Shown piece after piece: positions 31,606 through 52,166 of a stretch of DNA of 64,000 nucleotides. The notes under the pieces are model-generated. The model ran no database searches. It was not told the origin of the DNA and was given only the letters and a program-made list of their open reading frames with translations. The translations under genes were made by a program, and so were the position numbers. This stretch comes from an uncultured Methylomirabilota bacterium (GTDB taxonomy: Bacteria; Methylomirabilota; Methylomirabilia; Methylomirabilales; 2-02-FULL-66-22), in assembly GCA_963705305.1 (NCBI GenBank), contig OY970067.1:4288001-4352000 (forward strand), read 5' to 3'. Position 1 is the stretch's first letter; the number at the start of each line of letters is the position of its first letter.

Positions 31606-31943
31606 GGTTCTTCCTCCAGCCGCTCCTCTTCCTCAGCACCCCTGCTCCCGAGCGCAGCGGTGCGCCCCCTCCCTCCGGGGTGGAGCCCCTACGGGGTGGA
31701 ACCCGGACCGCAGGCTGACCCCTGACCTCTGACCTCTGACTACTAGTTTTTGCGCCATGCCCCCTGCTCTCTGCCCTCTGCTCTTTGCCCCGTGCCCCGC
31801 GCCCTATGCGCTTCGCAATCTGGTCAAAAACGTCGAATGTCCCCTAAATTCACAGGTTGGGGACGGTCTTGAAGTCCACCTGGATGGAGCGTGGTCCCAG
31901 CATGGATGCCCTTGACCTGTGATAAGAGGGCTGGTACTGTCTT

Positions 31944-31959
31944 GACCGTCTAGACGGTC
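31944..31959. promoter_or_regulatory. Perfect palindrome GACCGTCTAGACGGTC, probable TA autoregulatory operator
   Basis: 16-bp palindrome just upstream of the antitoxin gene; duplicated at 46765-46780. Confidence 0.55.
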
Positions 31960-31992
31960 TAGGCAGCCTTAGTCGTCTTGGGGGGCGTTCAG

Positions 31993-32223
31993 ATGAAACC
32001 GGAAAGGAAGATGGTCTACATCTCTGAAGAGGCTCATGGACGGCTCAAGCTCTTGGCCGCCCGCCGCAATCGGCCAATGGGGGAGCTCGTCGACGAGCTG
32101 GTCGCGCAAGAGCTGGCCGACCTCGTCAACCCCTGGACCGGTCCCGAGGGCCTGATGCTCCAGCAGAGCATCTTGGCGCGGATCTGGGATGATCCCGCCT
32201 TGGATGTGTATGACCATGATTGA
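31993..32223 (+). CDS. RHH-type antitoxin
   Basis: KMVYISEEAHGRLKLLAA; C-terminal RIWDDPALDVYD typical of MazF partners. Confidence 0.75.
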   Translation: MKPERKMVYISEEAHGRLKLLAARRNRPMGELVDELVAQELADLVNPWTGPEGLMLQQSILARIWDDPALDVYDHD

Positions 32224-32587
32224 GCTCCGGCGGGGTGACGTCGTCCTCGTAAGCTTTCCATTCGTCATCCCCAACCATACCCAGCGGAAGCGACGGCCGG
32301 CCGTGGTCGTTCAGTCCGATCGGTACAACCGCCGGCGAGCGGCCGTTATCGTCGCCGCCATCACCAGTACCCAGGGCTACGCCCACCTTCCCTGCAAGCT
32401 CCTGGTGGCGAAAGACACGCCTGAGGGCCGCGAGGCCGGTCTCCGCCTGGATAGCGTGGTAGACTGCCAGACCCTGGCCACGATCCCCCGAGGGGAGATC
32501 GTCCGCCGTCTCGGCAGATTTCCCCAGGACGTGATGCGTCGTCTGGACCAAGCCCTCCAGGACGCGCTGGGCTTGCCAGTGGTCTGA
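32216..32587 (+). CDS. MazF/PemK toxin
   Basis: RRGDVVLVSFPF....KRRPAVVVQ...VIVAAITS...GLRLDSVV. Confidence 0.92.
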   Translation: MIELRRGDVVLVSFPFVIPNHTQRKRRPAVVVQSDRYNRRRAAVIVAAITSTQGYAHLPCKLLVAKDTPEGREAGLRLDSVVDCQTLATIPRGEIVRRLGRFPQDVMRRLDQALQDALGLPVV

Positions 32588-33207
32588 AATGCTGGCGAGG
32601 AGTGTACGATTGGACGCCTGGGCGAACCTACCGTCCGCTGGCAGATTGGAAGCCGACAGGGACGCGTTGGAGTATGCACGGATGGGATGGGGAGGGGCGG
32701 CGTCAGATTTGGGACTGGCGGAGAGAGGAAGACAAGCAGCAAATAAGGTAATTACGGTTACAACGTCCCCCCGACGCTAGTTGGGGTCAGAGCTGTGCGG
32801 ATAAATATGCTGTACATTGTTGACCGAACCCTGATGGAGCATTTCTTTGCGACCTTTGCGTCTTGGCGTGAGAATATTCCGGGTCTCTCTCCATTTCGCA
32901 TTTCGAACTTCAAATTTCGAATTTTCCTTTGCGCCTCTGCCCCCCCCACTCGCCCCTGCGCCTCTTCGCCTCAGCGCCTCTACGGCCCCCTTCCCTTTAC
33001 CCTTTGCCCTTTGCCCTACGCCACAGGATACGGTCAATAATGTCGCAACGTCCCCTAGACCGAGTGGCGGAGAGTACCTCCCGGAGAGCGATCCATGTCC
33101 GGGCGATCGGCCGCTTCCCGCGGCGTTCGGAGAGGGTCCCGGGATGCAGTTTCCCCTTGCTGGCACGTCGGGATGGCGCTACACTATGGGCACCCTGGAG
33201 GTGCTAC

Positions 33208-33531
33208 ATGAGTGTAACCACGCACAGAACCCGGACCAAGGCAACGTCGCAGCGGGAGGCGGCGCCCATGGCCTCCCGGATTGTCCGCCGGAGCTTTGCG
33301 CTTCCCCGGCACATCGTCATGGAGGCCACGGCAGTGGCCCCGGCTGAGCTGCAGACCAACCTCAACCGGCTCGTCACGACCGCGCTAGAAGAGTACACGG
33401 CCACCCGCAAACAGCAGGCCTTTGCAGCCGCCATGGCCGCCATGGCGGCGGACCCTGCGGTCACCCGCGTCTCCAGCGACCTCCTGGCGGTCTTTCGCAC
33501 GACCGAGGTGGACGGCCTCCCCGATGATTAG
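33208..33531 (+). CDS. Antitoxin of the second MazF module
   Basis: RRSFALP...NLNRLVTTALEEY...AMAADP...DGL; overlaps the toxin start. Confidence 0.75.
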   Translation: MSVTTHRTRTKATSQREAAPMASRIVRRSFALPRHIVMEATAVAPAELQTNLNRLVTTALEEYTATRKQQAFAAAMAAMAADPAVTRVSSDLLAVFRTTEVDGLPDD

Positions 33532-33886
33532 CCGCGGCCAGATCTACCGCGTCAACCTCAATCCCGTCCATGGCCGCGAGCAGAAGGGGATGCGCCCCGT
33601 CCTGGTCGTCTCCGCCGATGCCATCAACCGTCAGCCGCTCGTCGTGACCGTCGTGGCAGGCACGGACGCGACCACCGTGCCCCGCGACTACCCGACGAAC
33701 GTCCGGGTGCCGGCCCGCGAGAGCGGCTTGCCGAAGGACACGGTCTTCCTGTGCTTCCAGCTCCGAACCCTCGATCCGACGCGCTTCCAGGATCCTCGCA
33801 CCGGCCAGGTGACGCCGGTGGGCCAGCTCCCGGCGGCGCGCATGGCCGAGGTCGATACAGCGCTCCGCGCCGTGCTGAGCTTCTAG
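33524..33886 (+). CDS. MazF/PemK toxin
   Basis: RGQIYRVNLNPVHGREQKGMRPVLVVS...GLPKDTV.LCFQLRTLD. Confidence 0.92.
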   Translation: MISRGQIYRVNLNPVHGREQKGMRPVLVVSADAINRQPLVVTVVAGTDATTVPRDYPTNVRVPARESGLPKDTVFLCFQLRTLDPTRFQDPRTGQVTPVGQLPAARMAEVDTALRAVLSF

Positions 33887-34290
33887 GAGCCTGGAGAGCG
33901 CCAACAAGTCTGTGGTCGCCGAATCATGCCGGCGGGACCGTTCCGCGAATAGCCCCTCCTCTTGCGTTTCAGCGCCTGATCCTACGTCCGTGCGCGATGG
34001 CACGGAGCTGGCCGACCTGACCGGCCAGGCATTGTGCCCCAAGACGGCTTGTGAAACGAGGCCCTATCGGCAATCCCACGTCTCCCCCGTGCCGGCGGAT
34101 CGCCCTCGACCGCGAGAACCGCCTCGACGCTCATCTAGCCGCTTTCTCCCGAGCGTCGCGGGAGCGGAGAAGGGCATGCGGACGGCGGTCGTCAGGAGCG
34201 GCAGGCGGGAAGGGGGGGGATCGGACTCAGGGACTTGAGGGAGGCCCGGAAGGGTGGCGGCAACAAGGTAATTAAGGTTACAACGTCCCC

Positions 34291-34902
34291 TCGGCCTTGT
34301 TCCCCTCCATCAGGGGCACGTGTTTGTGGGCCGCCGCGTGGAAGAGGACCTCGGGCAGGTGCTCCTCCAGGACAGCCGTCATCCGCGCCTCGTCGGTGAC
34401 ATCGGCGATCACGGGGTGGAGGACGAGCTTCGGGACCTTGTCCCGCAGCTCCAGCTCCACGAAGAAGAGGCCGTTCTCGGACCGGTCCAAAAGGACCAGC
34501 TCGGCCGGCTCGAACCGGGCGATCTGGCGGCACAGCTCCGACCCGATGGAGCCGCCCGCCCCCGTCACCAGGACCCGCTTCCCGGACACGAACTGCTCCA
34601 CCTCGGCCTGGTCGATGCGGACCGGCTCGCGCCGCAGGAGGTCCGCGATGTTCAGCCGGCGGGGCCTCACCGCCAGGGCCGGGCTGTCCGTCAGCTCGCG
34701 CAGGTTGGGGATCGTCTTGAACTCCACCTGGGCGGACCGGCAGGCCCCGATGATCCGGCGCATCTGCTCGCCGGTGGCCGAGGGGATGGCGATCAAGAGC
34801 TCGTGGATCGCATGCGTGTGGCACAACCCGGGCAGCTCGTCGATCGTCCCCAGCACCTTCTTGCCGTGGATGCGCCGGCCCTGCCTGGCCGGATCGTCGT
34901 CC
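34291..34902 (-). pseudogene. 612-bp internal fragment of a CapD/PglF-like dehydratase gene
   Basis: Collinear with 54270-54881 but with many substitutions; begins immediately after site A at 34261-34290. Confidence 0.9.
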
Positions 34903-35008
34903 GCGGGCCCCACCGTACCGTCCGTCCCTCTCCTCGGAAGGTCTTGACATGTGTTGTCAGATCTGCCAACATCGCAATTACCGGCGGCCCAAGGGAAGGC
35001 AAGATACG

Positions 35009-35355
35009 ATGACTCGGAAGACACGACCAATTTCGTGGGTCAGCGCGGCGCTCAGGGAATTCCAGGCGTTCCCGGAGGGGGCCAAGGCGATTTGTCTTGC
35101 CGCTCTCACGGTGGCCGCTGAAAACGAGAAAGCTGACATTGCGAGCCGATGCACGGCATGGGCGCGGGTGTATTTGAGATCGCTCTGCGGTTTCGGAGCA
35201 ATGCGTTTCGAGTCGTCTATCCCGTGCAGCTTGGAGACGACATCTGGGTGCTCCATGCGTTCGAGAAGAAATCGAAGCGGGGCGCCAAAACTCCGGGGGG
35301 CGAAATCGATTTGATTAAGAACCGCCTGAAGAGATTGAGGGAGATGTTGCCATGA
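35009..35355 (+). pseudogene. RelE/Gp49-like toxin, frameshifted
   Basis: MTRKTRPISW..AALREFQAFP...KADIA / (K)PMHGMGAGVFEIAL....FRVVY....IWVLHAFEKKS; one base missing near 35143. Confidence 0.85.
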
Positions 35356-35672
35356 AAACAAAGGGGGAAGTTATGCGCGGCAGCGGGAATGTTTTCCGCG
35401 ACTTGGGCCGTGAGACCGCGGATATTGAGCAGTTCAAGGCAATCCTGGCCGCGGAAATCATTAAGACCCTCAACCGGGAGCGCTTGACCGTGCGGGCCGC
35501 GCAGGCGCGCACGGGCATTGCTGCGGCCGATTTCTCGCGCATTCGGAACACGGACCTCGGCCGGTTCACCGCCGACCGCCTCATGGCGACCCTCAACCGA
35601 CTCGGGGCGCGGGTGGAGGTCAAGGTCAGGGTGCGGCGCGCCGAACCTGTCGCGCACCGCGCCACAGCCTAG
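35352..35672 (+). CDS. XRE-family HTH antitoxin
   Basis: GSGNVFRDLG...KAILAAEI...TGIAAADFSRIR..DLGRFT.DRL. Confidence 0.88.
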   Translation: MKTKGEVMRGSGNVFRDLGRETADIEQFKAILAAEIIKTLNRERLTVRAAQARTGIAAADFSRIRNTDLGRFTADRLMATLNRLGARVEVKVRVRRAEPVAHRATA

Positions 35673-35896
35673 CTGTCACGTTGGCTCGTTCACTGCGCAG
35701 CGCAAAGGCTGAAGACGGCGGTGGGCTGGCAGGGGCAGCGGAGTCAGGGGTGAGCAGAGGCTGGAAGGAGGGGAGTTGGAAAATAAAGTCAATAATGTCG
35801 CAACGTCCCCTAAACGTTCTGCCGTTCGACGTTCCACGTGCTCCGCTCGATGTTCCTAACCGCCGCACGTCGAACCGCAGCACGTCGAACCGTCTC

Positions 35897-36280
35897 CTAC
35901 CGCAGCACCCCGGAGGCCCAGCCGAGGATCCCGAGGCCCGCACCGGCAGTATCCAGCAGCACGTCCCACGGGGTGCCGTGGCGGCCAGGCACGAAGGTCT
36001 GGTGCCACTCGTCCAGTCCCCCCACCGCCATTGCCGTCGCCAAGGCGCAGGCGATGACCAGCGTTCGCTGCCGGCCGTTGCCATTCGTCGCAGATCGGGA
36101 CAGCAGCCAGCCGAGGACCGCGTACTCCGCCAGGTGGATGCTTTTTCGAAGAAGCAGGCGCAGCACGTCCCCGTCCCGCATGGGGAGCGCGTGGGACGAG
36201 CCAATCAGAAAAATAACGCCAACCCAGATGAGCGTGAGCATCCAGAGTCGGCGGCGATCGGTTACCGTCGCAATCTGCAT
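35897..36280 (-). CDS. VanZ-like membrane protein
   Basis: LRKSIHLAEYAVLG..L and DEWHQTFVPGRHGTPWDVLLDTAG. Confidence 0.85.
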   Translation of the reverse strand: MQIATVTDRRRLWMLTLIWVGVIFLIGSSHALPMRDGDVLRLLLRKSIHLAEYAVLGWLLSRSATNGNGRQRTLVIACALATAMAVGGLDEWHQTFVPGRHGTPWDVLLDTAGAGLGILGWASGVLR

Positions 36281-36416
36281 TTGGCAATCTGACCTTCGCC
36301 TGGAGATGCAGTCAAAAAGCGTATACTGGGGCCTGCTCCAGGCGAGATAATCTCCGTCCCGCTATCCTGCACGGCCTGAAGGAGTTCCTCAACAGAGACC
36401 TCCCCCTCGCTCAGCC

Positions 36417-36764
36417 TTAGATGTAGAGAAGTTGGTCCGCCACCTCGGAGGCTGCCAACCGCGTGAGGAGGCGGCCCACTCTCGCCACTATCTCCGTCGG
36501 TAGACGCCGGCGGGCAATGATGATGCCTGTATGGTGCCTGCCCACCCCCAGCCACTCGCTGTGAAGGCGTTCGAAGTCGGCACGGTTGTGCGTCAGCAGG
36601 GCCCGCCGCATCCTCGTGGCATGCGCCAGCTGCTCGTTGTCGGAGAGACCCAGTTGTCCAAGGTCGCGGGTGGTCACCGCATCAAAACCGCGGCCCCGCA
36701 GGATAGCGGCGACGACGACCGAGACATCTTCGTCGAGGTAGAGGGCGGCAGGGGGATCAGGCAT
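36417..36764 (-). CDS. DUF5615 PIN-like toxin
   Basis: LYLDEDV....A..LR.RGFD...SDNEQL..A....RALLTHNRADF...HTGII. Confidence 0.88.
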   Translation of the reverse strand: MPDPPAALYLDEDVSVVVAAILRGRGFDAVTTRDLGQLGLSDNEQLAHATRMRRALLTHNRADFERLHSEWLGVGRHHTGIIIARRRLPTEIVARVGRLLTRLAASEVADQLLYI

Positions 36765-37041
36765 CGGGGCGGGATGCCGGGTGGGCTAGCTCGTCCGGAA
36801 CCTCATTGCGCTCGGTGTGCAGATCGATTTCCCCCTGGTGATCCGCATAGTAACTGAGCGCATCAAAGACCTGCGCTAGGGTCAGGTAGGGAAAGTGCAC
36901 GGGAATCTCTTCGGGCGTCACGCCCCCCCGCCAGAGACCCACCACGGCTCGCACGGGAACGCGGGTGCCCTGGATGACCGGCTCGCCCCCGAGGATACTG
37001 TCGTCCCGGATGATGTACCGATGTTCCGTGGCAACGACCAT
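36757..37041 (-). CDS. DUF433 antitoxin
   Basis: ILGGEPVIQGTRVPV...TPEEI...FPYLTLAQVFDALSYY. Confidence 0.9.
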   Translation of the reverse strand: MVVATEHRYIIRDDSILGGEPVIQGTRVPVRAVVGLWRGGVTPEEIPVHFPYLTLAQVFDALSYYADHQGEIDLHTERNEVPDELAHPASRPDA

Positions 37042-37512
37042 ACGCCTTCCCTCCGGCTGCTCCGCATTATAGGCCATCCTGGCCCATTGGCAAGTCTCTT
37101 CCTACCGCGGCCCCTCTCGCTCGCTGAAGCCTGGCGGCTCTCTGCGTCCGTCGCCGCCTTGACCGGGTGGCGCCCGGGTTGCGCACGTAGGCGAGATCCA
37201 CCGCAGGCGTAGGGCTTGCCGCGCAGCTTTCCGACCCGATCGTGCGGCGACAGCGGACGAGCGGAGAAAGGCATGCGGACGGCGGTCGTCAGGAGCGGCG
37301 GCAGGCAGGGCGGTGACAATAAGGTAATTAAGGTTACAACGTCCCGTCGATGCTTTGGTGGGGAGAGGAGACGGGGAAGTCGGAAGGAGAGAGGGTCGAT
37401 CGGCTTTCGGCGTGTGCGGTGGGGGTGCGTACGGTGGGACGGCAAGGCGCGATCGGAATCAGAGGCGGCTTTGCCCTTTGCCCTGTGCGCTATGCGCTTC
37501 GCCCTTTGCGTT

Positions 37513-37830: not shown

Positions 37831-37833
37831 TAC

Positions 37834-38187
37834 CTACGAGGGTGGCGTCGAGATCCGTATCCGTCCGCCGCGGACCGTGATGATCATTCCACCCGTGAGG
37901 GCGTCTTCATGTCGTTCCAGAACCTGCGCCATCAGCTCAATGCGTTGCTTCGCCGGAACATCGGGCAAGCGGACGATGCCGCGGTGTGGCGCTGCCTCGA
38001 GAAAGACCAGTTCGCCGAAGTCTGTGTCGATCGTGACGAGAATGCGCTCTTCGCTCGCGGCCCACTGGAGCAGCACCCGATCCCCAGGATCGTGTCCGCG
38101 CACCCGGGACTCGAGGACGTCATGCCCCTGCCCACGGAGCCAGTCGGCGAGTCGCCGGCCGGCACACCGGTCCACCAGGAATCTCAC
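37834..38187 (-). CDS. DUF5615 PIN-like toxin
   Basis: RFLVDRC.G..LA.WLR.QGHDV...D..LLQWA..E.RILVTIDTDFGEL. Confidence 0.88.
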   Translation of the reverse strand: MRFLVDRCAGRRLADWLRGQGHDVLESRVRGHDPGDRVLLQWAASEERILVTIDTDFGELVFLEAAPHRGIVRLPDVPAKQRIELMAQVLERHEDALTGGMIITVRGGRIRISTPPS

Positions 38188-38432
38188 TGCCCGGCCACCC
38201 GGACCGCATCGAGGGTATCGTTGGCGATCACGGCGCGCGCGTACGAGAGGCACGCGCGGATGTCGTCGGGTTCCAGATCGGGATACTCAGCGAGAATATC
38301 CTGCACCGACTCACCCTGAGCGAGCAGGCTCAGAATGAGTTCCACAGAAATTCGCATCCCGCGGATAATCGGTTTCCCGCCGAAGATTTCCGGGTTCGCA
38401 ACGATTCGCCTGAGAAGCTCTGGATCTGTCAT
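38184..38432 (-). CDS. DUF433 antitoxin
   Basis: RIVANPEIFGGKPIIRGMRISVELIL..L..G....IL.EYPDLEPDDIRACL. Confidence 0.92.
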   Translation of the reverse strand: MTDPELLRRIVANPEIFGGKPIIRGMRISVELILSLLAQGESVQDILAEYPDLEPDDIRACLSYARAVIANDTLDAVRVAGQ

Positions 38433-38974
38433 GGTCTCACCACCCCTCCACGGAGCATTCCGGCAGAGTGTCACAGCGCCCATAGTATACCATCAATCCG
38501 CCGGTTTTCCTGGTTTTTGCCCTGAGCGCGGAAACCCTAACCCGCAACGGTCCGACCCTCGACGCTTCGGATGGAACGCGGTAAGAGGAGAGGGGTCGGA
38601 ATATCTGGGTGGCGGGACGGCAGGGCGCGATCGAGGTCAGGGGTGAACGGAGGCTGGAAGGAGGGGAGCTGGAAAATAAAGTCAATAATGTCGCAACGTC
38701 CCCTCGACGCATTGGTGGGGAGAGGAGACGGGGAAGTCGGAAGGAGAGGGGGTCGATCGGCTTTCGGCGTGTGCGGTGGCGGTGCGTACGATGGCACGGC
38801 AGGGCGCGATCGGAATCAGAAGCGGCTTTGCCCTTTGCCCTGTGCGCTATGCCTTTTGCGCTACGCTCTTCGCTTTTCGCACTGTGTCCCTTGCCGCAGA
38901 GCCCCCCTCGTGGTAGGCTCACGCCAGCATCCCGGGCAAACGATCAGCCGTGCAACTGCCTGGAGGAGTTGGCC

Positions 38975-39226
38975 ATGAAACCAAAGAGGCCCGCACCTGT
39001 CGAGATCGCGCCTCGCATCGCGGTGAATTCGCGGGTACGATTCGGGCAGCCCGTGATCAAGGGAACGCGGGTCCCCGTGGCCGTGGTCTTGGATGAAATG
39101 GCGGCGGGGACCGCCATCGAAGATATCACACGGGAATACGGCATCACGCGTGATGATGTGCGTGCGGTGTTTCGCTACGCCGCCAAGGTACTGGGTACCG
39201 AGGAAGTCAGGGCAGCGAGCCGGTGA
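38975..39226 (+). CDS. DUF433 antitoxin
   Basis: RIAVN..VRFGQPVIKGTRVPV..V...AAG..IEDI..EYGITRDDVRA..RYA. Confidence 0.9.
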   Translation: MKPKRPAPVEIAPRIAVNSRVRFGQPVIKGTRVPVAVVLDEMAAGTAIEDITREYGITRDDVRAVFRYAAKVLGTEEVRAASR

Positions 39227-39591
39227 TCCGCTTTCTGATTGACGCGGACCTCCCCCGGTCCGTTTCCGCCGCCCTGCGGGAGCGTGGTTTCCTGGCTGAT
39301 GATGTGCGGGATCTGGACCTCGGCACAGCGACCGACAACGTCATACTTCACTATGCACGGACCCACGCCTACACTCTGGTATCGGCTGATAAAGGGTTTA
39401 CAAACCTCGTGCGATACCCTCTGGGCTCCCATTGCGGGATCGTTGTCGCACGATTTTCCCCGCATACTTCCGCGCGGATGAAAACCCGCCTCCTGGTCCG
39501 GTGGCTTCCCACTCTGCAGGATGAGGACGTGGCGGGAAGCCTCTTGATCGTCCAGCCAAAAGGCATCCGGATCCGGCGTGCAAAACAATAA
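39223..39591 (+). CDS. DUF5615 PIN-like toxin
   Basis: RFLIDADLP......LR..G..A.DVR...L..ATD..I..YA.....LVSADKGF...HCGIVV. Confidence 0.88.
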   Translation: MIRFLIDADLPRSVSAALRERGFLADDVRDLDLGTATDNVILHYARTHAYTLVSADKGFTNLVRYPLGSHCGIVVARFSPHTSARMKTRLLVRWLPTLQDEDVAGSLLIVQPKGIRIRRAKQ

Positions 39592-39958: not shown

Positions 39959-40399
39959 TCAACGCGAGGAGGTCCGACGAACAGGTCCCGGCGCGAGTGT
40001 AAATCCGGCCGCCGCAAAGTGTGAATCAAATGCAAAGGCCTGCGTGATGTGTTCCTGGCGCATCAGCGCAAAGCTCGTCCCATCCACAAAGCTGAAAGCG
40101 TGGTCCGCATACTTCTGAAGCAGGTCATAGGCTTGCCGCTCCAGCGGCTCCGTGATGACCATCCGCTCAAGTCGGCGGCCCTGTCCCAGGGCGTCTATGA
40201 ACCGCCAGGCAGGGTCATAACCCGCAGCATACCGAAGGAGCGTGTAGGTCTCGCCGATCACCAGGTTCGACGTGACCAGTGTGCAATCCTCCCTGGTCAG
40301 TGCCATCAGCGTGCGTGCCGCTCGCTGGTGGTGCGCGTCATCGGTCGCCTGGATCGCGAACCACGCCCCCGTGTCGACAAAGATCCGACGGATCGTCAC
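39959..40399 (-). CDS. vapC: VapC PIN toxin
   Basis: IFVDTGAW, VIGETYTLL, FSFVDGTSF.LM and AFAFDSHF..AGF. Confidence 0.92.
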   Translation of the reverse strand: MTIRRIFVDTGAWFAIQATDDAHHQRAARTLMALTREDCTLVTSNLVIGETYTLLRYAAGYDPAWRFIDALGQGRRLERMVITEPLERQAYDLLQKYADHAFSFVDGTSFALMRQEHITQAFAFDSHFAAAGFTLAPGPVRRTSSR

Positions 40400-40644
40400 T
40401 GCCTCCTCCCCCGCCGAACGCCCAGGAGGCAGGCGTCATGAAGCCGGGACACATCTCTCCGGCCGACCCGGCCTGCCTGACCCGCCAAGCTGGCAATCGG
40501 ATTGTCGGACTGTTCCGCGGCCGTACGGAGGACGATATCGACACCACGGCGAACCAGGCTCGTCTTGGAGACGCGCATACGGCGCGCAGCCTCCTCCAGT
40601 TTTCGGTCCTGCTCTTCGGTTAAAAGAACCTGCACACGGGTCAT
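40396..40644 (-). CDS. CopG/RHH antitoxin (VapB-like)
   Basis: MTRVQVLLTEEQ..KL...A......KTSLVRRGVD; upstream inverted repeat TGTGTAA..TTACACA at 40735-40761. Confidence 0.85.
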   Translation of the reverse strand: MTRVQVLLTEEQDRKLEEAARRMRVSKTSLVRRGVDIVLRTAAEQSDNPIASLAGQAGRVGRRDVSRLHDACLLGVRRGRRQ

Positions 40645-41154
40645 TGCCTCCTCCGTCCTATTTGTCCTTGAACCGAATCCAGCCGGGCCCTTCTTGGCGC
40701 ATCGGCGGCAAGAGGCTTCCGGGATAGAGCTAATTGTGTAACTATTGTCTAGTATTACACATCCAATGAACACAGTCAACCCGCAACTCGGCGCGCCATC
40801 TGACCGCAGATGAGGATTCGGAGAAACTGAGGCGGGTCGTGAAGGGGGACGGCTGAAGCGGGATCGGAATCAGGAGGGGCCGCGCTTGGCGCTCTGCTCT
40901 ATGCTCTTCGCCCTTTGCGCTGTGCGTTTCACAATAAGGTAATTAAGGTTACAACGTCCCCTCGACGTGACCGACCTGACCAGCTCCGGCCGCTGGGCGG
41001 TGATCGCCGCCTGCGGAGTCCCCTCCGCAACCGCACCCGCCCCCACCGCGGCCGATTCCGCGAGCACCGCCTGGGCCGGTGAAGATGGCAACGGAACTTT
41101 CAGAACTGAAAAATCCGGATGGATTTTGTCGGTAAGGCCGGCATGATCGATGAC

Positions 41155-41445: not shown

Positions 41446-41457
41446 GCCTCCCAGAAA

Positions 41458-41489: not shown

Positions 41490-41518
41490 CTCAGTGAAGC
41501 CCTGGTTTTCTCCGGTGG

Positions 41519-41725: not shown

Positions 41726-42030
41726 GATGGAAGCGATGGCGAGCGCTGGGTGACGTTACACTCAAAGTCGGTGCCTTCTCACCGTGTCACCAGCCGGGGG
41801 AAGCGCGGTGCGCGTCAATGCGCGTTCCCGAAAGTTCAACGTCTTTCCTCCGGTCCGGAGACTCCCCCGGATTCAGCCTCCTCGCCGGGGATCTACAGAT
41901 CCGCCCGCTCCTTTCCCGGCTCCTGTGATAGGATTATCCGCAGGTTGACGTGGCGGACGGCACTCCTACCAGCCCACGTCGTCTCGGGCGCCCAAACGTA
42001 TCTGGTCCATGGTACAGGGACCAACGAACG

Positions 42031-44541
42031 ATGGCTGACGCCGACACGAACGCTCCGCAGGATGAACTGGCCCGTGCGGAAGCCGCACTCGCAGAGCTGG
42101 AGCAAAAGACCCGCGAGGCCCGCGCCCGCGTGCAAGCCCTGCGAGCGCGGAAGACGGCTGTCCACGAATCACCGCCGTTGTATGTCGCGCTGCCATCTCC
42201 CCCGACAGCATGCGACAGTCTGACCCCGGAGCGAATCCAGCTCTTCCGTCAACTCTTCCGCGGTCGGGAGGATGTCTTCGCCCGTTTGTGGACCAATCCG
42301 AAGAAACAGACCAAGGGTTATGCGCCCGCCTGCGCCAACGAGTGGGCACGGGGCGTCTGCGAGAAGCCGCGGGTCAAGTGCGGGGAATGCCCGAACCAAG
42401 CATTTCTCCCGGTTGACGACAAAGCCATTCGGGGACATCTCCAGGGCCAGCACGTTATGGGGGTCTACCCCCTCCTGCGCGATGAGACCTGCTGGTTCCT
42501 TGCGGTTGACTTCGACGGGGCGGGGTGGCGCGACGATGTGGCGACCTTCGTTGAGACGTGTGCTAGCGTGCGGTGTCCGGCCGCCGTAGAGCGGTCTCGG
42601 TCTGGGAATGGGGCGCACGCTTGGTTCTTCTTCGCGACACCCGTGGTCGCCAGCCTGGCCCGGAATCTCGGCTCTTTCCTGCTCACCGAAACCATGGCCC
42701 GGCGGCACCAGCTCAGTATGCGCTCCTATGACCGCCTCTTTCCTAACCAGGACACCCTGCCCCGCGGCGGGTTCGGGAACCTGATCGCGCTTCCACTCCA
42801 GCACGCGGCCACGCTAAAGGGCAACGCGCTCTTCGTCAATACGACCTGGACACCATACTCCGACCAGTGGGCCATGCTGGCCTCGGTGCCCCGTCTGGAC
42901 CCAGCCCACGTGGAGTCCCTGGTCAAGGACGCCGCGCGACGGGGACAGATCATCGGCGTCCGGTCCGCCGGACTCGACGACGAGGCCGACCACGCCACGC
43001 CGTGGACCCGACCGCCATCCGGGACGCGCCAGGCCCCGGTGATCCCTGGGCCGCTCCCCCCGGAGGTCCGGGCCGTCCTGGCCCAGCGCCTCTTCGTCGC
43101 GAAGGCCGGCCTCCCCTCCCCGCTGCTCAACCAGATTAAGCGCCTGGCGGCCTTCCAGAACCCGGAGTTCTACAAGAAACAGCGAATGCGACTGTCCACG
43201 GCCGGCACGCCCCGCGTGATCGCCTGCACCGAGGAGTTCCCCGAGCACCTCGCCCTGCCCCGGGGGTGTTGCCCCGATCTCCAGGCCCTCCTCCACCAGC
43301 ATGGGGTGCGTCTCGTCATCGACGATCAGCGCACGGAAGGCGACCCTCTGGACGTCCGCTTCCACGGGGAACTGACCCCCCTCCAGGAAGACGCCGCACG
43401 CGCCCTCCTCCGGCACGAGACCGGCGTGTTCGTCGGACCCCCCGGCGTGGGGAAGACCGTACTCGGTGTCTACCTCGCGTCCCAGCGGCGGCGCAGCACC
43501 CTGGTGCTCGTTCATCGGCGGCCACTCCTGGATCAATGGAGGGTGCAGCTCGCCCTGTTCCTCGGGATCGAGGATGCGGCCATCGGGGAGATCGGCCGGG
43601 GGAAGCAGAAGGCGACCGGACGCCTGGATGTGGCCATGCTCCAGAGTGTCACGCGCAAAGACCGCGTGGATGATCGCGTGGCCGCCTACGGCCAGGTGAT
43701 CGTAGACGAGTGCCACCACATGCCCGCGGTCTCGTTCGAGCGGGTGCTCTCCGAGGTGCGCGCCCGCTACGTCGTCGGCCTCACGGCCACCCCCCAGCGG
43801 CGTGATGGGCACCAACCGATCACCGAGATGCAGCTCGGCCCGGTCCGGTACACAGCGGGCCCTCCTGGACCACGGTCCGGGAGACCGTTTGACACCCAGC
43901 TCATCACCCGAGAGACGCGGTTCCGCCTCGTCTCGGAACAGGCGACCCTCCCCATCCAGGCCCTCTATCGAGAGCTGGCAGCCGATCCCGCACGGAACGA
44001 TTTGATCCTCACCAACGTCATCCAGGCCATTGACGAGGGTCACTCCCCGATCCTCCTTACCGAGCGGAAGGATCACCTCACCTTCTTCGCGGAGCACCTC
44101 CGCGGATTCGTGCAGCACCTGGTCGTCCTGCAGGGCGGGATGACCGAGAAGGAACGGCGAGCGAGCGGGGCGGCCCTCGCGGCGATCCCGGACGATGAGG
44201 AGCGTCTGGTCCTCGCCACCGGGCGTTACATCGGCGAGGGCTTTGATGACGCCCGCCTGGATACGCTCTTCCTCGCGCTACCCATCTCGTGGAAGGGAAC
44301 GCTGGTGCAGTACACTGGCCGCCTGCACCGATCCCATCCCCGGAAGACGGTCGTCCGAATCTTCGACTACGTCGACCGTGCGGTCCCGATGCTCCAGAAG
44401 ATGTTCGAGCAACGTCTCCGCGCGTACCGCGCCATCGGCTATGTCGAGGACCAGGGGGCGGGCGGGTCTCTCTTGTCGCCGCGCAGCGAACGGTTCGAGG
44501 CGGAGCCGGAATTGCGGAGCAAGCCGGAGAAGCCCCGATGA
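42031..44541 (+). CDS. AEP primase-like domain fused to an SF2 (DExH) helicase
   Basis: LFRGREDV, Cys cluster, LAVDFD and ERSRSGNGAHAW (AEP motifs); GPPGVGKT, VDECHH, GLTAT, EGFD..RLDTL and QYTGRL.R. Confidence 0.88.
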   Translation: MADADTNAPQDELARAEAALAELEQKTREARARVQALRARKTAVHESPPLYVALPSPPTACDSLTPERIQLFRQLFRGREDVFARLWTNPKKQTKGYAPACANEWARGVCEKPRVKCGECPNQAFLPVDDKAIRGHLQGQHVMGVYPLLRDETCWFLAVDFDGAGWRDDVATFVETCASVRCPAAVERSRSGNGAHAWFFFATPVVASLARNLGSFLLTETMARRHQLSMRSYDRLFPNQDTLPRGGFGNLIALPLQHAATLKGNALFVNTTWTPYSDQWAMLASVPRLDPAHVESLVKDAARRGQIIGVRSAGLDDEADHATPWTRPPSGTRQAPVIPGPLPPEVRAVLAQRLFVAKAGLPSPLLNQIKRLAAFQNPEFYKKQRMRLSTAGTPRVIACTEEFPEHLALPRGCCPDLQALLHQHGVRLVIDDQRTEGDPLDVRFHGELTPLQEDAARALLRHETGVFVGPPGVGKTVLGVYLASQRRRSTLVLVHRRPLLDQWRVQLALFLGIEDAAIGEIGRGKQKATGRLDVAMLQSVTRKDRVDDRVAAYGQVIVDECHHMPAVSFERVLSEVRARYVVGLTATPQRRDGHQPITEMQLGPVRYTAGPPGPRSGRPFDTQLITRETRFRLVSEQATLPIQALYRELAADPARNDLILTNVIQAIDEGHSPILLTERKDHLTFFAEHLRGFVQHLVVLQGGMTEKERRASGAALAAIPDDEERLVLATGRYIGEGFDDARLDTLFLALPISWKGTLVQYTGRLHRSHPRKTVVRIFDYVDRAVPMLQKMFEQRLRAYRAIGYVEDQGAGGSLLSPRSERFEAEPELRSKPEKPR

Positions 44542-44900: not shown

Positions 44901-45433
44901 ACCGCACCGATCCTCACCCTCACTGCCGCAGCCAGTTGCGCCCCACTGAACGTCTCCGAGGCGAATCCCCCGTCAAGTTTCTACCACAGCGCCCTGGAAC
45001 ATCGCCGATCTCGGCCCATATCGTAGGGACTATAGAGGCAACGATAAGGCCCGCAACCAACACAGGCCTCGACATATCGCGTTAGCCCTCCTTGACCCGC
45101 GAGCTGCGGTCGCGCGTAGCGCACCCATCGGTGTCACGCAGCGAACGACATGGACGTCATCATTAGTTCCTCTTCCCCGCTCCTCTTGGGGCCCTTTGCG
45201 AGGCGGTGATTTCGTCGGAATGGAGCTAGCGAAAGGCGGGAGGAAGGGAGGCGGCAACAAGACAACTTATGCTACAACGTTCCATCGTACACGAAATTCG
45301 GCAACAGCAATAACCAGATCGCGTCCCCTTTCTTGTGCCTGCGCGGAGAACCGACCCTACGCCTCGACGAGAATGACGGAAGTGCCTCGCTGTTTAGTGT
45401 GCGACGCTTTCCGAGGTTCGGCAGGAGATGCAG

Positions 45434-45705: not shown

Positions 45706-45824
45706 CAACTTCACTCGCTCACGAACAATCCCGAACGCCATATGCCATGGTCGCCCCCCGTTTCTCGCTTTCGCCGACTCTCCGGCTCTCCGCACCAAAA
45801 CACGGAACCCAGCGCGCCGGTCCC

Positions 45825-47408: not shown

Positions 47409-47599
47409 AATGCTGGCGAGGAGTGTACGATTGGACGCCTGGGCGAACCTACCGTCCGCTGGCAGATTGGAAGCCGACAGGGACGCGTTGGAGTATGCAC
47501 GGATGGGATGGGGAGGGGCGGCGTCAGATTTGGGACTGGCGGAGAGAGGAAGGCAAGCGGCAAATAAGGTAATTACGGTTACAACGTCCCCCCGATGGC

Positions 47600-47827
47600 T
47601 CAGGTGGGCGGACCGTAGAGGCACTGGTCGTGCCGGATGGAGATATCGGTTTCGGTCGATTCCCCGTTCCCGATGAGCGCCTCCAGTCCTCGTCGCTGCC
47701 CCTCTGCGATTCGGGCAGGCTCATCTGGAAGCAAGAGCACATAGATGTGCTCCTTCTCCCTCAGGTCCACCGACTCCAGAGGCCGAAGGATGCCACACTC
47801 ATAAACGGCCTGAACGACTTTTGTCAC
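47600..47827 (-). CDS. DUF104/AF2212-like antitoxin (orphan)
   Basis: VQAVYE.GILRPLE.VDL.E.E.I; lies between site A (47562) and site B (48002). Confidence 0.78.
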   Translation of the reverse strand: MTKVVQAVYECGILRPLESVDLREKEHIYVLLLPDEPARIAEGQRRGLEALIGNGESTETDISIRHDQCLYGPPT

Positions 47828-48216
47828 CGTATCTCCTTCCCAAGCCAGGAGGTAGATTCCCTTGAACCTGAGAGTAGCTATGTGCGCTTAGGAAGTCAAG
47901 GCTTGTTCACCCGCTGCCCCCCGCGCCCCCTCTCGCCCCTGCGCCTCTTCGCCTCAGCGCCTCTACGGCCCCCTTCCCTTTGCCCTTTGCCCTACGCCAC
48001 AGGATACGGTCAATAATGTCGCAACCTCCCCTAGCTTTTTCTCGGGCGGGTGCCGGTGAAGGTGACGGGGATGAGCTTGCCGGGCGACCACCGCTTGGAG
48101 GCAAGTGCGTGTTTCGTCTCCCGCTTCCCCTCAAGTCGTGATATGCTATGCTCTAAAATAGAGCAAGCCAGGGGGTGCTGTCGACGGCACCGGTGGACTG
48201 AACGGTCAGGACGGCA

Positions 48217-48498
48217 ATGGATATCGTAACCGCCAACCGACATGACATCTTGCGGATCGCACGCCGCCACGGGGTGGCTCAGGTCCGCCTGTTTGGCTCC
48301 CAAGCACGAGGCGTTGCGGGTGAAAGCAGCGACGTCGATCTCCTGATCGAGGTGGAGGGGCCCACCACACCGTGGTTCCCGGGCGGGCTGGTGGCTGACC
48401 TCGAGGCATTGTTGGGGTGCCGCGTGGACGTCGTGGAGGCGGACGCGCTGCACCCGGATGTCCGGGCACAGGCGCTGGCGGAGGCGCGGACGTTGTGA
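48217..48498 (+). CDS. MNT nucleotidyltransferase antitoxin
   Basis: VRLFGSQARG...ESSDVDLL....L...LE.LLG.RVDVV. Confidence 0.92.
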   Translation: MDIVTANRHDILRIARRHGVAQVRLFGSQARGVAGESSDVDLLIEVEGPTTPWFPGGLVADLEALLGCRVDVVEADALHPDVRAQALAEARTL

Positions 48499-48848
48499 AG
48501 GATGACCGGGTCTACCTCCGGCATATCCTCCAATGCATCGAGGCCATCGGCGGCTATATCACGTCGGGACGCCCGCAGTTCTTCGCAGATCGCAAGACCC
48601 ACAAGGCCGTCCTTCGCGAGCTCCAAGAACTCTCTGAGTCCGTCCAGCGGCTTTCGCCGGAACTACGAGCGCATCACCCTGAAGTCCCTTGGGCCGCCAT
48701 CGGCGGATTCAGGAACGTGCTGGTCCATGACTACCTGGGAATCAGCCTTTCCCGTGTGTGGGACGTGATCGAGCGGGATCTTCCCGCCCTTCGGACAACA
48801 GTGCTGCATATGCTCCGAGATCTCGGCGAGCGCCCTCCCGCGCCCTAA
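48495..48848 (+). CDS. HEPN (DUF86) toxin
   Basis: DRVYL.HI..CI, PEVPW..I.GFRNVLVHDY (RX4H motif) and VWDVI..DLP.L. Confidence 0.92.
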   Translation: MKDDRVYLRHILQCIEAIGGYITSGRPQFFADRKTHKAVLRELQELSESVQRLSPELRAHHPEVPWAAIGGFRNVLVHDYLGISLSRVWDVIERDLPALRTTVLHMLRDLGERPPAP

Positions 48849-49041
48849 CTCCCTGCTCTATACTTCAGCCCCCAGTGTCTTCTTCTCGACGTACGCTCGC
48901 ACCCTCATACCTCCTCGTCTTTTCTGCCCGCCTCCCCTGCTCCTCGCTTCTCCGCGCGGTTCTCAATTTCGAATGTCGCATTTCGAACTTCGAATTCCCC
49001 CCGTCGCCCGCTCCCCCCTCCGCCCCATGCCCTACGCTCTG

Positions 49042-50195
49042 TGCCCTTTGCCCTACGCCACAGGATACGGTCAATAATGTCGCAACGTCCCCTAGACCGA
49101 GTGGCGGAGAGTACCTCCCGGAGAGCGATCCATGTCCGGGCGATCGGCCGCTTCCCGCGGCGTTCGGAGAGGGTCCCGGGATGCAGTTTCCCCTTGCTGG
49201 CACGTCGGGATGGCGCTACACTATGGGCACCCTGGAGGTGCTACATGAGTGTAACCACGCACAGAACCCGGACCAAGGCAACGTCGCAGCGGGAGGCGGC
49301 GCCCATGGCCTCCCGGATTGTCCGCCGGAGCTTTGCGCTTCCCCGGCACATCGTCATGGAGGCCACGGCAGTGGCCCCGGCTGAGCTGCAGACCAACCTC
49401 AACCGGCTCGTCACGACCGCGCTAGAAGAGTACACGGCCACCCGCAAACAGCAGGCCTTTGCAGCCGCCATGGCCGCCATGGCGGCGGACCCTGCGGTCA
49501 CCCGCGTCTCCAGCGACCTCCTGGCGGTCTTTCGCACGACCGAGGTGGACGGCCTCCCCGATGATTAGCCGCGGCCAGATCTACCGCGTCAACCTCAATC
49601 CCGTCCATGGCCGCGAGCAGAAGGGGATGCGCCCCGTCCTGGTCGTCTCCGCCGATGCCATCAACCGTCAGCCGCTCGTCGTGACCGTCGTGGCAGGCAC
49701 GGACGCGACCACCGTGCCCCGCGACTACCCGACGAACGTCCGGGTGCCGGCCCGCGAGAGCGGCTTGCCGAAGGACACGGTCTTCCTGTGCTTCCAGCTC
49801 CGAACCCTCGATCCGACGCGCTTCCAGGATCCTCGCACCGGCCAGGTGACGCCGGTGGGCCAGCTCCCGGCGGCGCGCATGGCCGAGGTCGATACAGCGC
49901 TCCGCGCCGTGCTGAGCTTCTAGGAGCCTGGAGAGCGCCAACAAGTCTGTGGTCGCCGAATCATGCCGGCGGGACCGTTCCGCGAATAGCCCCTCCTCTT
50001 GCGTTTCAGCGCCTGATCCTACGTCCGTGCGCGATGGCACGGAGCTGGCCGACCTGACCGGCCAGGCATTGTGCCCCAAGACGGCTTGTGAAACGAGGCC
50101 CTATCGGCAATCCCACGTCTCCCCCGTGCCGGCGGATCGCCCTCGACCGCGAGAACCGCCTCGACGCTCATCTAGCCGCTTTCTCCCGAGCGTCG
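49042..50195 (+). repeat. Direct duplicate of 33005-34158 (antitoxin 49245-49568 and MazF 49561-49923)
   Basis: Offset 16037; starts at the site-B block. Confidence 0.93.
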
Positions 50196-50449
50196 GAGGA
50201 CTGGTTTGTCCGTCGCGCCTCATTGCCCATGTCGATCGTGGCACGGGCGATGTCCTTCCCGCCGAAACCTGGCGAGATCGATGGTGGCGCCTCCACCGCG
50301 GCCCCTCTCTCTCGCTGAAGCCTGGCGGCTCTCTGCGTCCGTCGCCGCCTTGACCGGGTGGCGCCCGGGTTGAGCACGTGGGCGAGATCCACCGCAGGCG
50401 TAGGGCTTGCCGCGCAGCTTTCCGACCCGATCGTGCGGCGACAGCGGAC

Positions 50450-52166
50450 GAGCGGAGAAGGGCATGCGGACGGCGGTCGTCAGGAGCGGCAGGCGGGAAG
50501 GGGGGGGATCGGACTCAGGGACTTGAGGGAGGCCCGGAAGGGTGGCGGCAACAAGGTAATTAAGGTTACAACGTCCCCTCGGCCTTGTTCCCCTCCATCA
50601 GGGGCACGTGTTTGTGGGCCGCCGCGTGGAAGAGGACCTCGGGCAGGTGCTCCTCCAGGACAGCCGTCATCCGCGCCTCGTCGGTGACATCGGCGATCAC
50701 GGGGTGGAGGACGAGCTTCGGGACCTTGTCCCGCAGCTCCAGCTCCACGAAGAAGAGGCCGTTCTCGGACCGGTCCAAAAGGACCAGCTCGGCCGGCTCG
50801 AACCGGGCGATCTGGCGGCACAGCTCCGACCCGATGGAGCCGCCCGCCCCCGTCACCAGGACCCGCTTCCCGGACACGAACTGCTCCACCTCGGCCTGGT
50901 CGATGCGGACCGGCTCGCGCCGCAGGAGGTCCGCGATGTTCAGCCGGCGGGGCCTCACCGCCAGGGCCGGGCTGTCCGTCAGCTCGCGCAGGTTGGGGAT
51001 CGTCTTGAACTCCACCTGGGCGGACCGGCAGGCCCCGATGATCCGGCGCATCTGCTCGCCGGTGGCCGAGGGGATGGCGATCAAGAGCTCGTGGATCGCA
51101 TGCGTGTGGCACAACCCGGGCAGCTCGTCGATCGTCCCCAGCACCTTCTTGCCGTGGATGCGCCGGCCCTGCCTGGCCGGATCGTCGTCCGCGGGCCCCA
51201 CCGTACCGTCCGTCCCTCTCCTCGGAAGGTCTTGACATGTGTTGTCAGATCTGCCAACATCGCAATTACCGGCGGCCCAAGGGAAGGCAAGATACGATGA
51301 CTCGGAAGACACGACCAATTTCGTGGGTCAGCGCGGCGCTCAGGGAATTCCAGGCGTTCCCGGAGGGGGCCAAGGCGATTTGTCTTGCCGCTCTCACGGT
51401 GGCCGCTGAAAACGAGAAAGCTGACATTGCGAGCCGATGCACGGCATGGGCGCGGGTGTATTTGAGATCGCTCTGCGGTTTCGGAGCAATGCGTTTCGAG
51501 TCGTCTATCCCGTGCAGCTTGGAGACGACATCTGGGTGCTCCATGCGTTCGAGAAGAAATCGAAGCGGGGCGCCAAAACTCCGGGGGGCGAAATCGATTT
51601 GATTAAGAACCGCCTGAAGAGATTGAGGGAGATGTTGCCATGAAAACAAAGGGGGAAGTTATGCGCGGCAGCGGGAATGTTTTCCGCGACTTGGGCCGTG
51701 AGACCGCGGATATTGAGCAGTTCAAGGCAATCCTGGCCGCGGAAATCATTAAGACCCTCAACCGGGAGCGCTTGACCGTGCGGGCCGCGCAGGCGCGCAC
51801 GGGCATTGCTGCGGCCGATTTCTCGCGCATTCGGAACACGGACCTCGGCCGGTTCACCGCCGACCGCCTCATGGCGACCCTCAACCGACTCGGGGCGCGG
51901 GTGGAGGTCAAGGTCAGGGTGCGGCGCGCCGAACCTGTCGCGCACCGCGCCACAGCCTAGCTGTCACGTTGGCTCGTTCACTGCGCAGCGCAAAGGCTGA
52001 AGACGGCGGTGGGCTGGCAGGGGCAGCGGAGTCAGGGGTGAGCAGAGGCTGGAAGGAGGGGAGTTGGAAAATAAAGTCAATAATGTCGCAACGTCCCCTA
52101 AACGTTCTGCCGTTCGACGTTCCACGTGCTCCGCTCGATGTTCCTAACCGCCGCACGTCGAACCGC
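50450..52166 (+). repeat. Direct duplicate of ~34162-35878 (capD fragment 50579-51190, frameshifted Gp49-like toxin 51297-51643, XRE antitoxin 51640-51960)
   Basis: Offset 16288; identical translations. Confidence 0.93.

Follow-up and report, generated by a model that had tools for sequence, protein, structure and literature searches.

Probable orphan ends of TIRtron/TIRYT elements in a toxin–antitoxin-rich accessory island of a Methylomirabilota bacterium

A 64,000-nt window of an uncultured Methylomirabilota bacterium (assembly GCA_963705305.1, contig OY970067.1, positions 4,288,001 to 4,352,000, forward strand) holds an array of 30-bp sites among toxin–antitoxin (TA) modules. Because the same sites, set in inverted pairs elsewhere in the genome, flank intact Y1/HUH transposase genes with a DnaA-domain-IV-like tail, we take them as terminal inverted repeats (TIRs). 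They are probably the TIRs of TIRtron/TIRYT elements, present in the window as orphan single ends that end-directed events and decay left behind. Their setting is a TA-rich and pseudogene-rich accessory island at the edge of a polysaccharide cluster. The site family and the enzyme are already known, if seldom studied, and a new integron-like capture system is not established.

The genome is a single contig of 5.65 Mb with 66% GC. Positions below are those of the window unless called genome positions. An earlier reading of the window from its letters, called here the sequence-only reading, listed 15 direct-oriented sites of two flavours, A and B. The 30-mers are present where it placed them, every one on the + strand. 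By a position matrix built from the genome-wide copies, 12 of the 15 have 34–49 bits and one has 26 bits. The two at 31822 and 46643, which are copies of each other, fall below 8 bits and are unsupported, so that 13 sites stand. The 10-mer CAACGTCCCC, with one mismatch at most, occurs 20 times in the window; shuffles have 7.2 ± 2.6 and none of 100 reaches 20.

The type A sites have 45–49 bits, and all sites named in this and the next paragraph are on the + strand. They are at 32741..32770 (45.5 bits; outer tip ...CAACGTCCCC at 32770, homology to the duplicate copy stopping at 32774), 34261..34290 (47.0 bits; tip adjoining a truncated Polysacc_synt_2 fragment), 37317..37346 (44.9 bits; tip CCCG, the 150 nt downstream being paralogous to the DNA after 38703) and 40932..40961 (49.1 bits). 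Starting 5 nt past the tip of the last one, the DNA is a patchwork copied from the chorismate synthase region (genome 4642135-4646029). The matrix and self-comparison place two more at 47562..47591 and 50549..50578, duplicates of 32741 and 34261, respectively.

The type B sites have 34–48 bits. They are at 33026..33055 (39.7 bits; preceded by TTCGAA repeats and a C-rich heptamer tract), 35781..35810 (48.1 bits; with a 26-bp core identical to an end, at genome 1467848, of the autonomous B-type element), 38674..38703 (48.1 bits; between divergent DUF433/DUF5615 operons) and 48002..48031 (34.1 bits; tip CAACCTCCCC, present only in the second copy of a duplication). Duplicates of 33026 and 35781 are at 49063..49092 (by the matrix and self-comparison) and 52069..52098, the latter being the last site ahead of the polysaccharide gene cluster. 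The site at 45255..45284 is decayed and weakly TIR-like (26.4 bits).

The 26-bp cores of the array sites are 97–98% identical to their consensus by hand count, 4 of 208 nt being mismatched in A and 6 of 182 nt in B. Unlike these near-uniform cores, the flanks are unrelated or about 90% alike. There are also 'empty' units, B-10 nt-A and A-125 nt-B. The alternation of A and B holds for six steps, from 32741 to 40932, and is broken in the duplicate (B-B) and in a second array described below.

Three AANGT iterations had been noticed in the sites and they are real, being two tandem 9-bp boxes and the tip read on the other strand. A mini-hairpin had been noticed too and it is not a site property. 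Folded as single-stranded DNA (ssDNA), none of eight sites does better than its shuffles (z −1.24 to +1.32). The ACGTC/GACGT stem is in the minimum-energy fold at 40932 alone, and the centroid fold has it at 38674.

Such sites also occur outside the array. A genome-wide matrix scan, proposed earlier as a check, gives 75 sites above 22 bits, scattered on both strands and in at least six flavours, with copies flanking Y1 genes and no match to the chromosomal dif-like sequence. Orphan ends number 67 in the genome. The flavours have the tip CAACGTCCCC in common and differ in the 19 nt preceding it. From the outside, a TIR has an 11-bp tip GGGGACGTTGC (on the other strand ...GCAACGTCCCC), common to nearly all copies, and then two tandem AT-rich boxes of 9 bp. 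The boxes start TTAT, TTAA or TAAT and go on with 4–5 copy-specific bases. An AAnGT box core is common only to flavours A and B, which may explain their co-occurrence.

Four −/+ site pairs, of the flavours B, C, D and E, are 1.04–1.09 kb apart and each encloses one open reading frame (ORF) of 330–344 aa that starts MPRxPRLDAPGxLHHV. An intact Y1 gene (genome 1466802-1467877) lies between inverted B-type sites identical to those of the array. By tblastn, the genome has 13 full-length transposase copies and about as many fragments. We examined the 12 distinct full-length copies, the 13th being a near-duplicate. Ends of the GGGGACG(T/C)T type are found at all 12, on both sides in 11 and on one side in 1. 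The dinucleotide TA lies just outside both sides of most full copies, and no empty insertion site was found. A TIRtron is an IS-like element of about 1.1 kb with a single gene for the TIRYT, a RAYT-like Y1/HUH ssDNA transposase with a DnaA-domain-IV-like C-terminal domain.

The match of the enclosed ORF to PF01797 Y1_Tnp has 27.7 bits and so passes the cut-off of 23. None of the 12 ORFs is interrupted, and their HUH (HxH) and Y..NP motifs are invariant. An AlphaFold (AF2) model made from the alignment of the 12 proteins has a mean predicted local distance difference test (pLDDT) score of 70, with 84–96 in the HUH part and 78–90 in the C-terminal part. Its best Foldseek match in PDB is 4er8, the E. 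coli TnpA-REP on a REP hairpin (TMt 0.72), followed by the TnpA of IS608, ISDra2 and IS200. The last ~90 residues of the model match 3pvp, the DnaA DNA-binding domain (TMt 0.74). When the 12-protein profile is searched against PDB, all five hits are DnaA domain IV, the best with an E value of 4e-4. The single-sequence PDB search with the enzyme gives nothing significant, and Pfam on one sequence does not report the DnaA-like tail.

Thus the sequence-only reading was right on the enzyme family with its Y1 HUH/RAYT model. The inverted B sites flank a Y1 gene, and the fold is like those of TnpA-REP and IS608. The site is a TIR and not a 3′ subterminal hairpin of the IS200/IS605 type.

The two parts of the enzyme diverge at different rates. 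The mean pairwise identity of the 12 proteins is 70% in the HUH part (residues 1–135) and 32% in the DnaA-like part (236–329). Since the conserved core parallels the conserved tip and the fast-changing tail parallels the fast-changing boxes, we infer that the DnaA-like domain would read the 9-bp boxes and the HUH core would cut at or near the tip. According to PMC6006769, the targets of DnaA domain IV are boxes of 9 bp.

The window itself has neither of the complements of a full element. No inverted partner site of 8 bits or more was found within 20–114 kb of window coordinates, and no Y1 transposase fragment was found by tblastn between genome 4,274,720 and 4,483,000. With no inverted partner and no transposase gene there, the window sites are orphan single ends.

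A second array of eight sites, all on the − strand, is at genome 4383165-4392718, 43 kb from the first array and across the polysaccharide locus. Its order is B A A b B A A B. The sites separate five or six TA operons of the MNT/HepT or HEPN type, which are co-directional with them. Each tip is 18–175 nt before an antitoxin start and the next site 140–170 nt past the toxin stop. Between the arrays is the 43-kb polysaccharide gene cluster, towards which the outer tips of both are turned, and both contain broken or extra copies of its genes. Besides the Polysacc_synt_2 fragment, these are a C-terminal piece of gmd beside the innermost B site and, 5 kb further out, a full gmd with 87% identity to the piece. 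Other site clusters, at genome 1.885–1.902, 2.326–2.331 and 2.412–2.419 Mb, mix TA pairs (BrnTA, Fic, ParE/Phd, HigB and PIN) with ordinary genes.

Orientation was counted genome-wide for neighbouring sites 6 kb apart or less with no Y1 gene between them, which gives 34 pairs. Co-oriented are 32 of them, in at least eight clusters, or 30 of 32 without the two pairs copied by duplication. The binomial probability for the latter is ~1e-7, an overstatement as the sites within one cluster are not independent. The GC skew puts the terminus at ~4.1–4.2 Mb, ~150 kb from the array region. Array 1 (+) and array 2 (−) thus share a replichore, for which reason a replication-strand bias was rejected as the source of their orientation.

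Paralogous homology breaks at the outer tips of three array sites. The break is at tip +4 for 32774/47595, at tip +0 for the Polysacc_synt_2 fragment (34289) and at tip +5 for the copy of genome 4642135... (40967). The intact Polysacc_synt_2 gene has a tip-like CATCGTCCCC directly followed by CGGACGTTG (54239-54262), which resembles two TIR tips set end to end. This motif, one of seven such in the genome, is 20 nt from the position where the paralogous fragment joins TIR A at 34290. No tip-like pseudo-site was found at the other two junctions.

Part of the array is a segmental duplication. By self-comparison, 30659..35895 is duplicated at 45480-52183 in blocks of 99.8–99.9% identity. Being in the second copy, the sites 49063, 50549, 52069 and arguably 47562 are copies and not independent events, so the array has ~9–10 independent sites and not 15. 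The right edge of the duplication extends ~85–190 nt past the B site, the identity dropping to 93% only 140–190 nt beyond. The copies differ at two places. The spacing of an A and a B site is 227 vs 1443 nt, and the second difference is a 254-nt indel. As these differences lie between shared heptamer+B stretches (57–116 nt, 92–96% identity), ordinary homologous exchange can explain them.

Reads were represented by one public run (X1) in the form of Logan contigs. It has 0.38 of the sampled words, is possibly from the source sample and was compared with 30000-45400. The contigs are mostly a few hundred nucleotides long. Two 'joints' in them (31664>32958 and 35776>38670) are uninformative on excision, circles and misassembly as they sit in repeats common to the site flanks. 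Variants at 32732 and 32738 agree with the second duplicate copy and lend weak support to the existence of both copies.

For the growth of the array we infer the following course. A gene for the B-flavour enzyme lies in trans at genome 1.4668 Mb. Repeated end-directed events, namely insertions, one-ended joins and adjacent deletions, would take place at or near a resident tip. Decay would follow, and the ends able to pair in inverted orientation would be lost, leaving co-oriented single ends at the module seams.

Several observations weigh against this course or against the assignment to TIRtrons. The autonomous A-type element is absent from this genome, and a metagenome contig (L015) carries the sole full element of A-like kind that was seen. 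There it sits between sequences homologous to genome 2471273-2474478, the intergenic DNA being too diverged to define an insertion point or a duplication of the TA dinucleotide. The tip GGGGACGT fits seven of the eight positions of GGGGWSAS, the published motif of TIRYT ends, which according to PMC3733652 describes only 'some' TIRs. The NCBIfam RAYT model NF047646 gives 50.8 bits, below its cut-off of 80, so the enzyme is a relative and not an equivalog. It is only their parallel divergence that suggests the DnaA-like domain as the reader of the boxes.

The geometry also holds points of this kind. Simple decay of symmetric elements predicts random orientation, in conflict with the 32 co-oriented pairs of 34, so an extra polar process would be needed. 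Co-orientation is not general in the site family. In another genome, G035, the neighbours among the matches listed are ~24 −/+ doublets, 12 same-orientation and 6 +/− pairs by hand count, which is the random 2:1 ratio. The junctions from tip to gene fragment have offsets of 0, 5 and 24 nt, the last being the gmd junction, and hence are not uniformly precise. The island has breakpoints without a TIR as well, such as the join of the Polysacc_synt_2 fragment and a truncated HigB near 34902-35148.

We do not read the array as a dedicated integron-like machine, a set of dif/Xer sites or promoters. Active or recent accretion of cassettes, integron-like on ssDNA, is rather unlikely. By this account, the TIRYT cuts 3′ of the CCCC tips of two co-oriented TIRs and pastes the segment 3′ of a resident tip, and heterogeneous TA arrays grow one way from a founder end. 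Equally doubtful is its general form, that TIRYTs drive such accretion and thereby build arrays of TA and defence cassettes, all running one way, where variable loci begin or end, in this genome on either side of the polysaccharide cluster. The DnaA-domain-IV-like tail would then read the two 9-bp boxes and so determine the ends open to an enzyme, and the A and B ends, with AAnGT in common, would be served by one enzyme. The sequence-only reading had proposed integron-like capture, and the co-orientation (32/34 pairs, at least eight clusters) and the breaks near the outer tip (+0 to +5) do fit it. So do the unrelated TA families of the contents, the compact units of array 2 (tip, 18–175 nt, MNT-HepT, 140–170 nt, next TIR), the two 'empty' units, the conservation of the site cores far above the flanks, and the CATCGTCCCC-CGGACGTTG motif near the fragment/TIR A junction. 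The AAnGT core common to the co-occurring A and B also fits, along with the intact B-type enzyme gene. However, the genome has no A-type enzyme gene, and no cassette recurs in it apart from the one segmental duplication, an ordinary one that runs past its last site. Junctions are offset by 5 and 24 nt in two cases, the cassettes have internal non-TIR breakpoints, and G035 shows no co-orientation excess among the matches listed. The homologues of the TA pairs at nine related loci end at the coding region, and the single locus with TIRs has a different arrangement.

The TIR may instead be carried along as part of a longer intergenic module, in which TTCGAA 7-mers and a C-rich heptamer tract precede it. 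The arrays would then have arisen from homologous recombination and duplication between modules of this kind beside TA operons, with the transposase uninvolved. At least ten sites have a heptamer tract directly inside the TIR, often with TTCGAA repeats, which are a genome-wide family, and plain homologous exchange explains the differences of the duplicate copies. But many sites lack the module or have it inverted, with G-rich flanks at 32741, 34261, 35781, 37317 and 38674. Most TTCGAA repeats have no TIR nearby, as the two-unit motif TTCGAANTTCGAA is at 115 overlapping positions in the genome and a TIR site is within 400 nt of four. At 40931 a TIR closes the heptamer tract, whereas at 30652 and 37510 the same tract stops without any, so the 30-bp unit is separable from the module. 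TIR-free modules are found in either orientation. This account is improbable for the array and possible for some sites. Still less credible are operators or promoters common to the TA operons. They would suit AT-rich direct repeats of 9 bp in GC-rich DNA. They would also suit the position of the tip in array 2 and at a single site of the 1.89-Mb cluster, where it precedes an antitoxin gene of like orientation by 18–63 nt. Against them, the site orientation of array 1 is constant while the gene orientation varies, none of four sigma-70-like matches in 32000-42000 overlaps a site (the DUF433 operon having its own match at 37093-37066), and the same sequence ends transposase genes elsewhere in the genome. 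XerC/XerD sites of the dif/pdif kind, delimiting mobile modules, had been proposed as well and have practically no chance. Such sites have two inverted arms of 11 bp about a 6-bp spacer. The AT-rich ATAA recalls a Xer arm and the array is near the terminus, but none of the 75 sites has ATAA-N6-TTAT, which refutes the model at the sequence level. The only dif-like match of the genome (two mismatches at most), at genome 4,193,945 on the − strand, reads ATAA-6 nt-TTATGTAAACT, is at the GC-skew maximum, is unlike the sites and is probably the chromosome dimer resolution site.

The orphan TIRtron ends that we favour belong to a described family, although the array had been called a candidate undescribed one. 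TIRtrons, TIRYTs and the TIR repeat families, with singles, dimers and groups, were described in 2013 by Di Nocera, De Gregorio and Rocco (PMC3733652). TIRYTs are the TnpA-Y1 subclass 2.1 with Bac_DnaA_C-like tails in Quentin et al. 2018, where it is the second largest Y1 transposase subclass (PMC6006769), and RAYT Group 1 of Bertels et al. 2017 (PMC5581495) has been assigned to it.

The likeness to TIRtrons is threefold. A RAYT-like Y1/HUH gene is between inverted repeats of ~30 bp starting GGGG, the C-terminal helix-turn-helix domain is DnaA_C-like, and extra repeat copies are scattered as singles, pairs and groups. The differences are the tip, GGGGACGT here and GGGGWSAS as published, and the long head-to-tail arrays of orphan ends (13 and 8 sites) between TA operons. 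Head-to-tail TIR arrays between TA genes were not found in a literature search, nor in the available parts of the three papers. The two 9-bp boxes go undiscussed in the available parts of the TIRYT papers, Quentin et al. having compared only the GGGG motif with the DnaA box (PMC6006769).

REP/REPIN-RAYT systems resemble the present one in that the fold is closest to 4er8, one enzyme flavour goes with each repeat flavour, and non-autonomous repeats far outnumber the gene. REPs are palindromes of 20–40 nt that form a hairpin with a GTAG or CGTC tag. They differ in that the sites here are without a hairpin and without a GTAG tag, the CGTC inside the tip being stemless, and in that the intact enzyme gene has 12–13 copies, not one. 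The prevailing order here is head-to-tail, unlike that of REPs, the dimers of which are head-to-head or tail-to-tail (PMC3733652).

The IS200/IS605 elements such as IS608 and ISDra2 share the Y1 HUH catalytic fold, and the co-oriented geometry of their left and right recognition structures is that of the arrays here. However, they have subterminal hairpins, no inverted repeats, no target duplication and no DnaA-like domain, whereas the present elements have 30-bp inverted repeats and no hairpin. Lacking a hairpin, the sites are neither REPs nor IS200/IS605-type ends.

Integrons and clusters of attC sites lacking integrases (CALINs) are similar in having co-oriented short sites between compact, mostly promoterless-looking and often TA-encoding units, and in that the array has no recombinase gene next to it. 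Yet the sites here are HUH transposon ends of two direct 9-bp boxes and a tip, without an attC-type imperfect palindrome, and the cassettes here start inside broken genes. No IntI and no tyrosine recombinase is among the 116 window ORFs scanned, the search for IntI covering the window and not the whole genome. The earlier statement of no integrase in the window holds to that extent, for the ORFs scanned only. A 905-aa protein with rve and Mu-transposase-C domains (Tn7/Tn552-like transposase) is encoded at 18416-21130, upstream of the array.

HUH enzymes of the IS91/ISCR kind move adjacent DNA from a single defined end and give units with one fixed and one arbitrary boundary. The units here also have one fixed and one arbitrary boundary. 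IS91/ISCR enzymes are of the Y2 type with a different end structure. We know of no one-ended rolling-circle-type activity for TIRYT.

The site pattern is in 10 of the 21 genomes of the genus including this one (9 of the 20 others), where the flavours differ and full elements prevail. The other genus genomes scanned, most of which are fragmented metagenome-assembled genomes, gave no A/B array. A metagenome scan for A/B sites gave five short loci, none of them with an array. In the relatives there is no conservation of the entire array, and single genes alone match. The unpublished genome G026 is part of this comparison only, and none of our claims depends on it. At nine related loci, homologues of the TA pairs match in the coding region only, and one of the nine has TIRs nearby as a full element. 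Across species representatives, the scan found at least 116 stretches in records titled Desulfobacterales, Nitrospirae, Terriglobia, Planctomycetales, Elusimicrobia, Binatia, Methylomirabilota and others.

In the genomes G033–G037 (loci L044, L046, L060, L053 and L084), ends that combine this tip with the box TAATTCAA are very numerous, with 86 exact matches in G035. These ends are mostly inverted doublets ~98 bp apart, a REPIN-like miniature form of the family.

Some ends carry further marks. At full-element ends at genome 481051, 502081, 738538 and 2525704, the outermost 7–8 nt of the tip and 4–6 nt of the flank are tandemly duplicated (e.g. ..ATTAGGGGACGT twice), and G035 has four whole ends 29–30 bp apart. 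Both observations hint at repeated cutting and rejoining around ACGT. An IS110-family element (~1.67 kb) is inside a B-type TIR, between CAACGT and CCCC, at genome 4385400-4387071 (array 2) and 2413900-2415811. The two copies are at the same TIR point though only 82% alike, as if another mobile element targeted the TIR tip in a sequence-specific manner. This insertion point, too, suggests a cut around ACGT.

TA modules had been claimed for most intervals and Pfam confirms them, as 10 of the 13 intervals between claimed sites hold at least one TA pair by hand count. They comprise MazF/PemK modules of two kinds, a HigB/HigA-like pair, three DUF433/DUF5615 pairs, and RHH-PIN, MNT-HepT and HicA-containing modules. 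On the + strand are a MazE-like ORF with a PemK/MazF toxin at 31978..32584 (PF02452, E 5e-24), a PemK/MazF toxin at 33422..33883 (PF02452, E 1.5e-25, the ORF being called long), a HigB-like toxin (Gp49, N-terminally cut) with a HigA-like HTH_37 protein at 35149..35669 (PF05973, PF13744), and an MNT nucleotidyltransferase with a HepT toxin at 48217..48845 (PF01909, PF01934). A DUF433 antitoxin-like and DUF5615 PIN-like pair is at 36420..37077 on the − strand (PF04255, PF18480), a second pair at 37837..38483 on the − strand and a third at 38990..39588 on the + strand, with an approximate start (both by Pfam). An RHH antitoxin and a PIN toxin are at 39962..40779 on the − strand (PF01850, PF12651).

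One interval contains a conflict-system gene at 41950..44538 (+) for a TOTE-type fusion of 863 aa, an AEP primase with a ResIII/DEAD helicase (PF22548, E 1e-95). Its homologues in the related genomes G013 and G014 have a DNA identity of 82–85%. The intact Polysacc_synt_2 gene at 53156..55444 (−; PF02719, E 1e-114) is the first gene of the polysaccharide cluster between the two arrays. Its truncated fragment at 34281..35030 (−) covers only positions 1–100 of the 293 of the PF02719 profile, and 34289-34902 is 93% identical to 54268-54881 of the intact gene.

The broken genes of the island include, besides this fragment, a chorismate synthase tail, an acyltransferase-like piece at 52338-52676 and a VanZ-like ORF with a partial profile match. 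A caspase-domain (Peptidase_C14) gene split into two adjoining ORFs at 29277-30128 is another of several island pseudogenes. DDE_Tnp_1_4 transposase genes are at both window ends (153-590 and 62180-63526), one of them cut.

Short repeats are frequent around the sites. Tandem 7-bp (A/T)TTCGAA repeats are at 27563-27606, 32893-32924 and 48982-49010 and at an estimated ~70 loci genome-wide, elsewhere in the genome often bracketed by CGCCAAGG...CCTTGGCG. Stretches of 33 nt of this family are 91% conserved across many related genomes. Degenerate C-rich heptamer tracts (CTTTGCC, TGCCCTC etc.) or their G-rich complements fill the spacers beside TA operons and often stop exactly at the TIR inner edge. 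They are at 30274-30352, 31715-31804, 32951-33017, 37469-37510, 38826-38863, 39760-39825, 46536-46625 and 47910-47993. Another short repeat, CCCTACGGGGTGGAAC doubled, is at 29177-29251, 31667-31744 and 46488-46565. It has at least eight further copies, nearly all in genome 4.29–4.42 Mb, and the region is repeat-rich.

No experimental study of TIRYT (subclass 2.1) was found in our literature search. The present genome is a clear natural case, with 12–13 intact enzyme genes, each with its own box flavour behind a common tip, and with 67 orphan ends strongly co-oriented within clusters. It makes two questions testable, whether the DnaA-like domain reads the 9-bp boxes and whether a Y1 enzyme is able to join DNA at single ends, thereby shaping accessory islands. 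Should the single-end joining be false, the sites are still useful markers of the seams of variable islands. If it is true, it would offer an explanation for many 'cassette arrays without an integrase' in environmental genomes.

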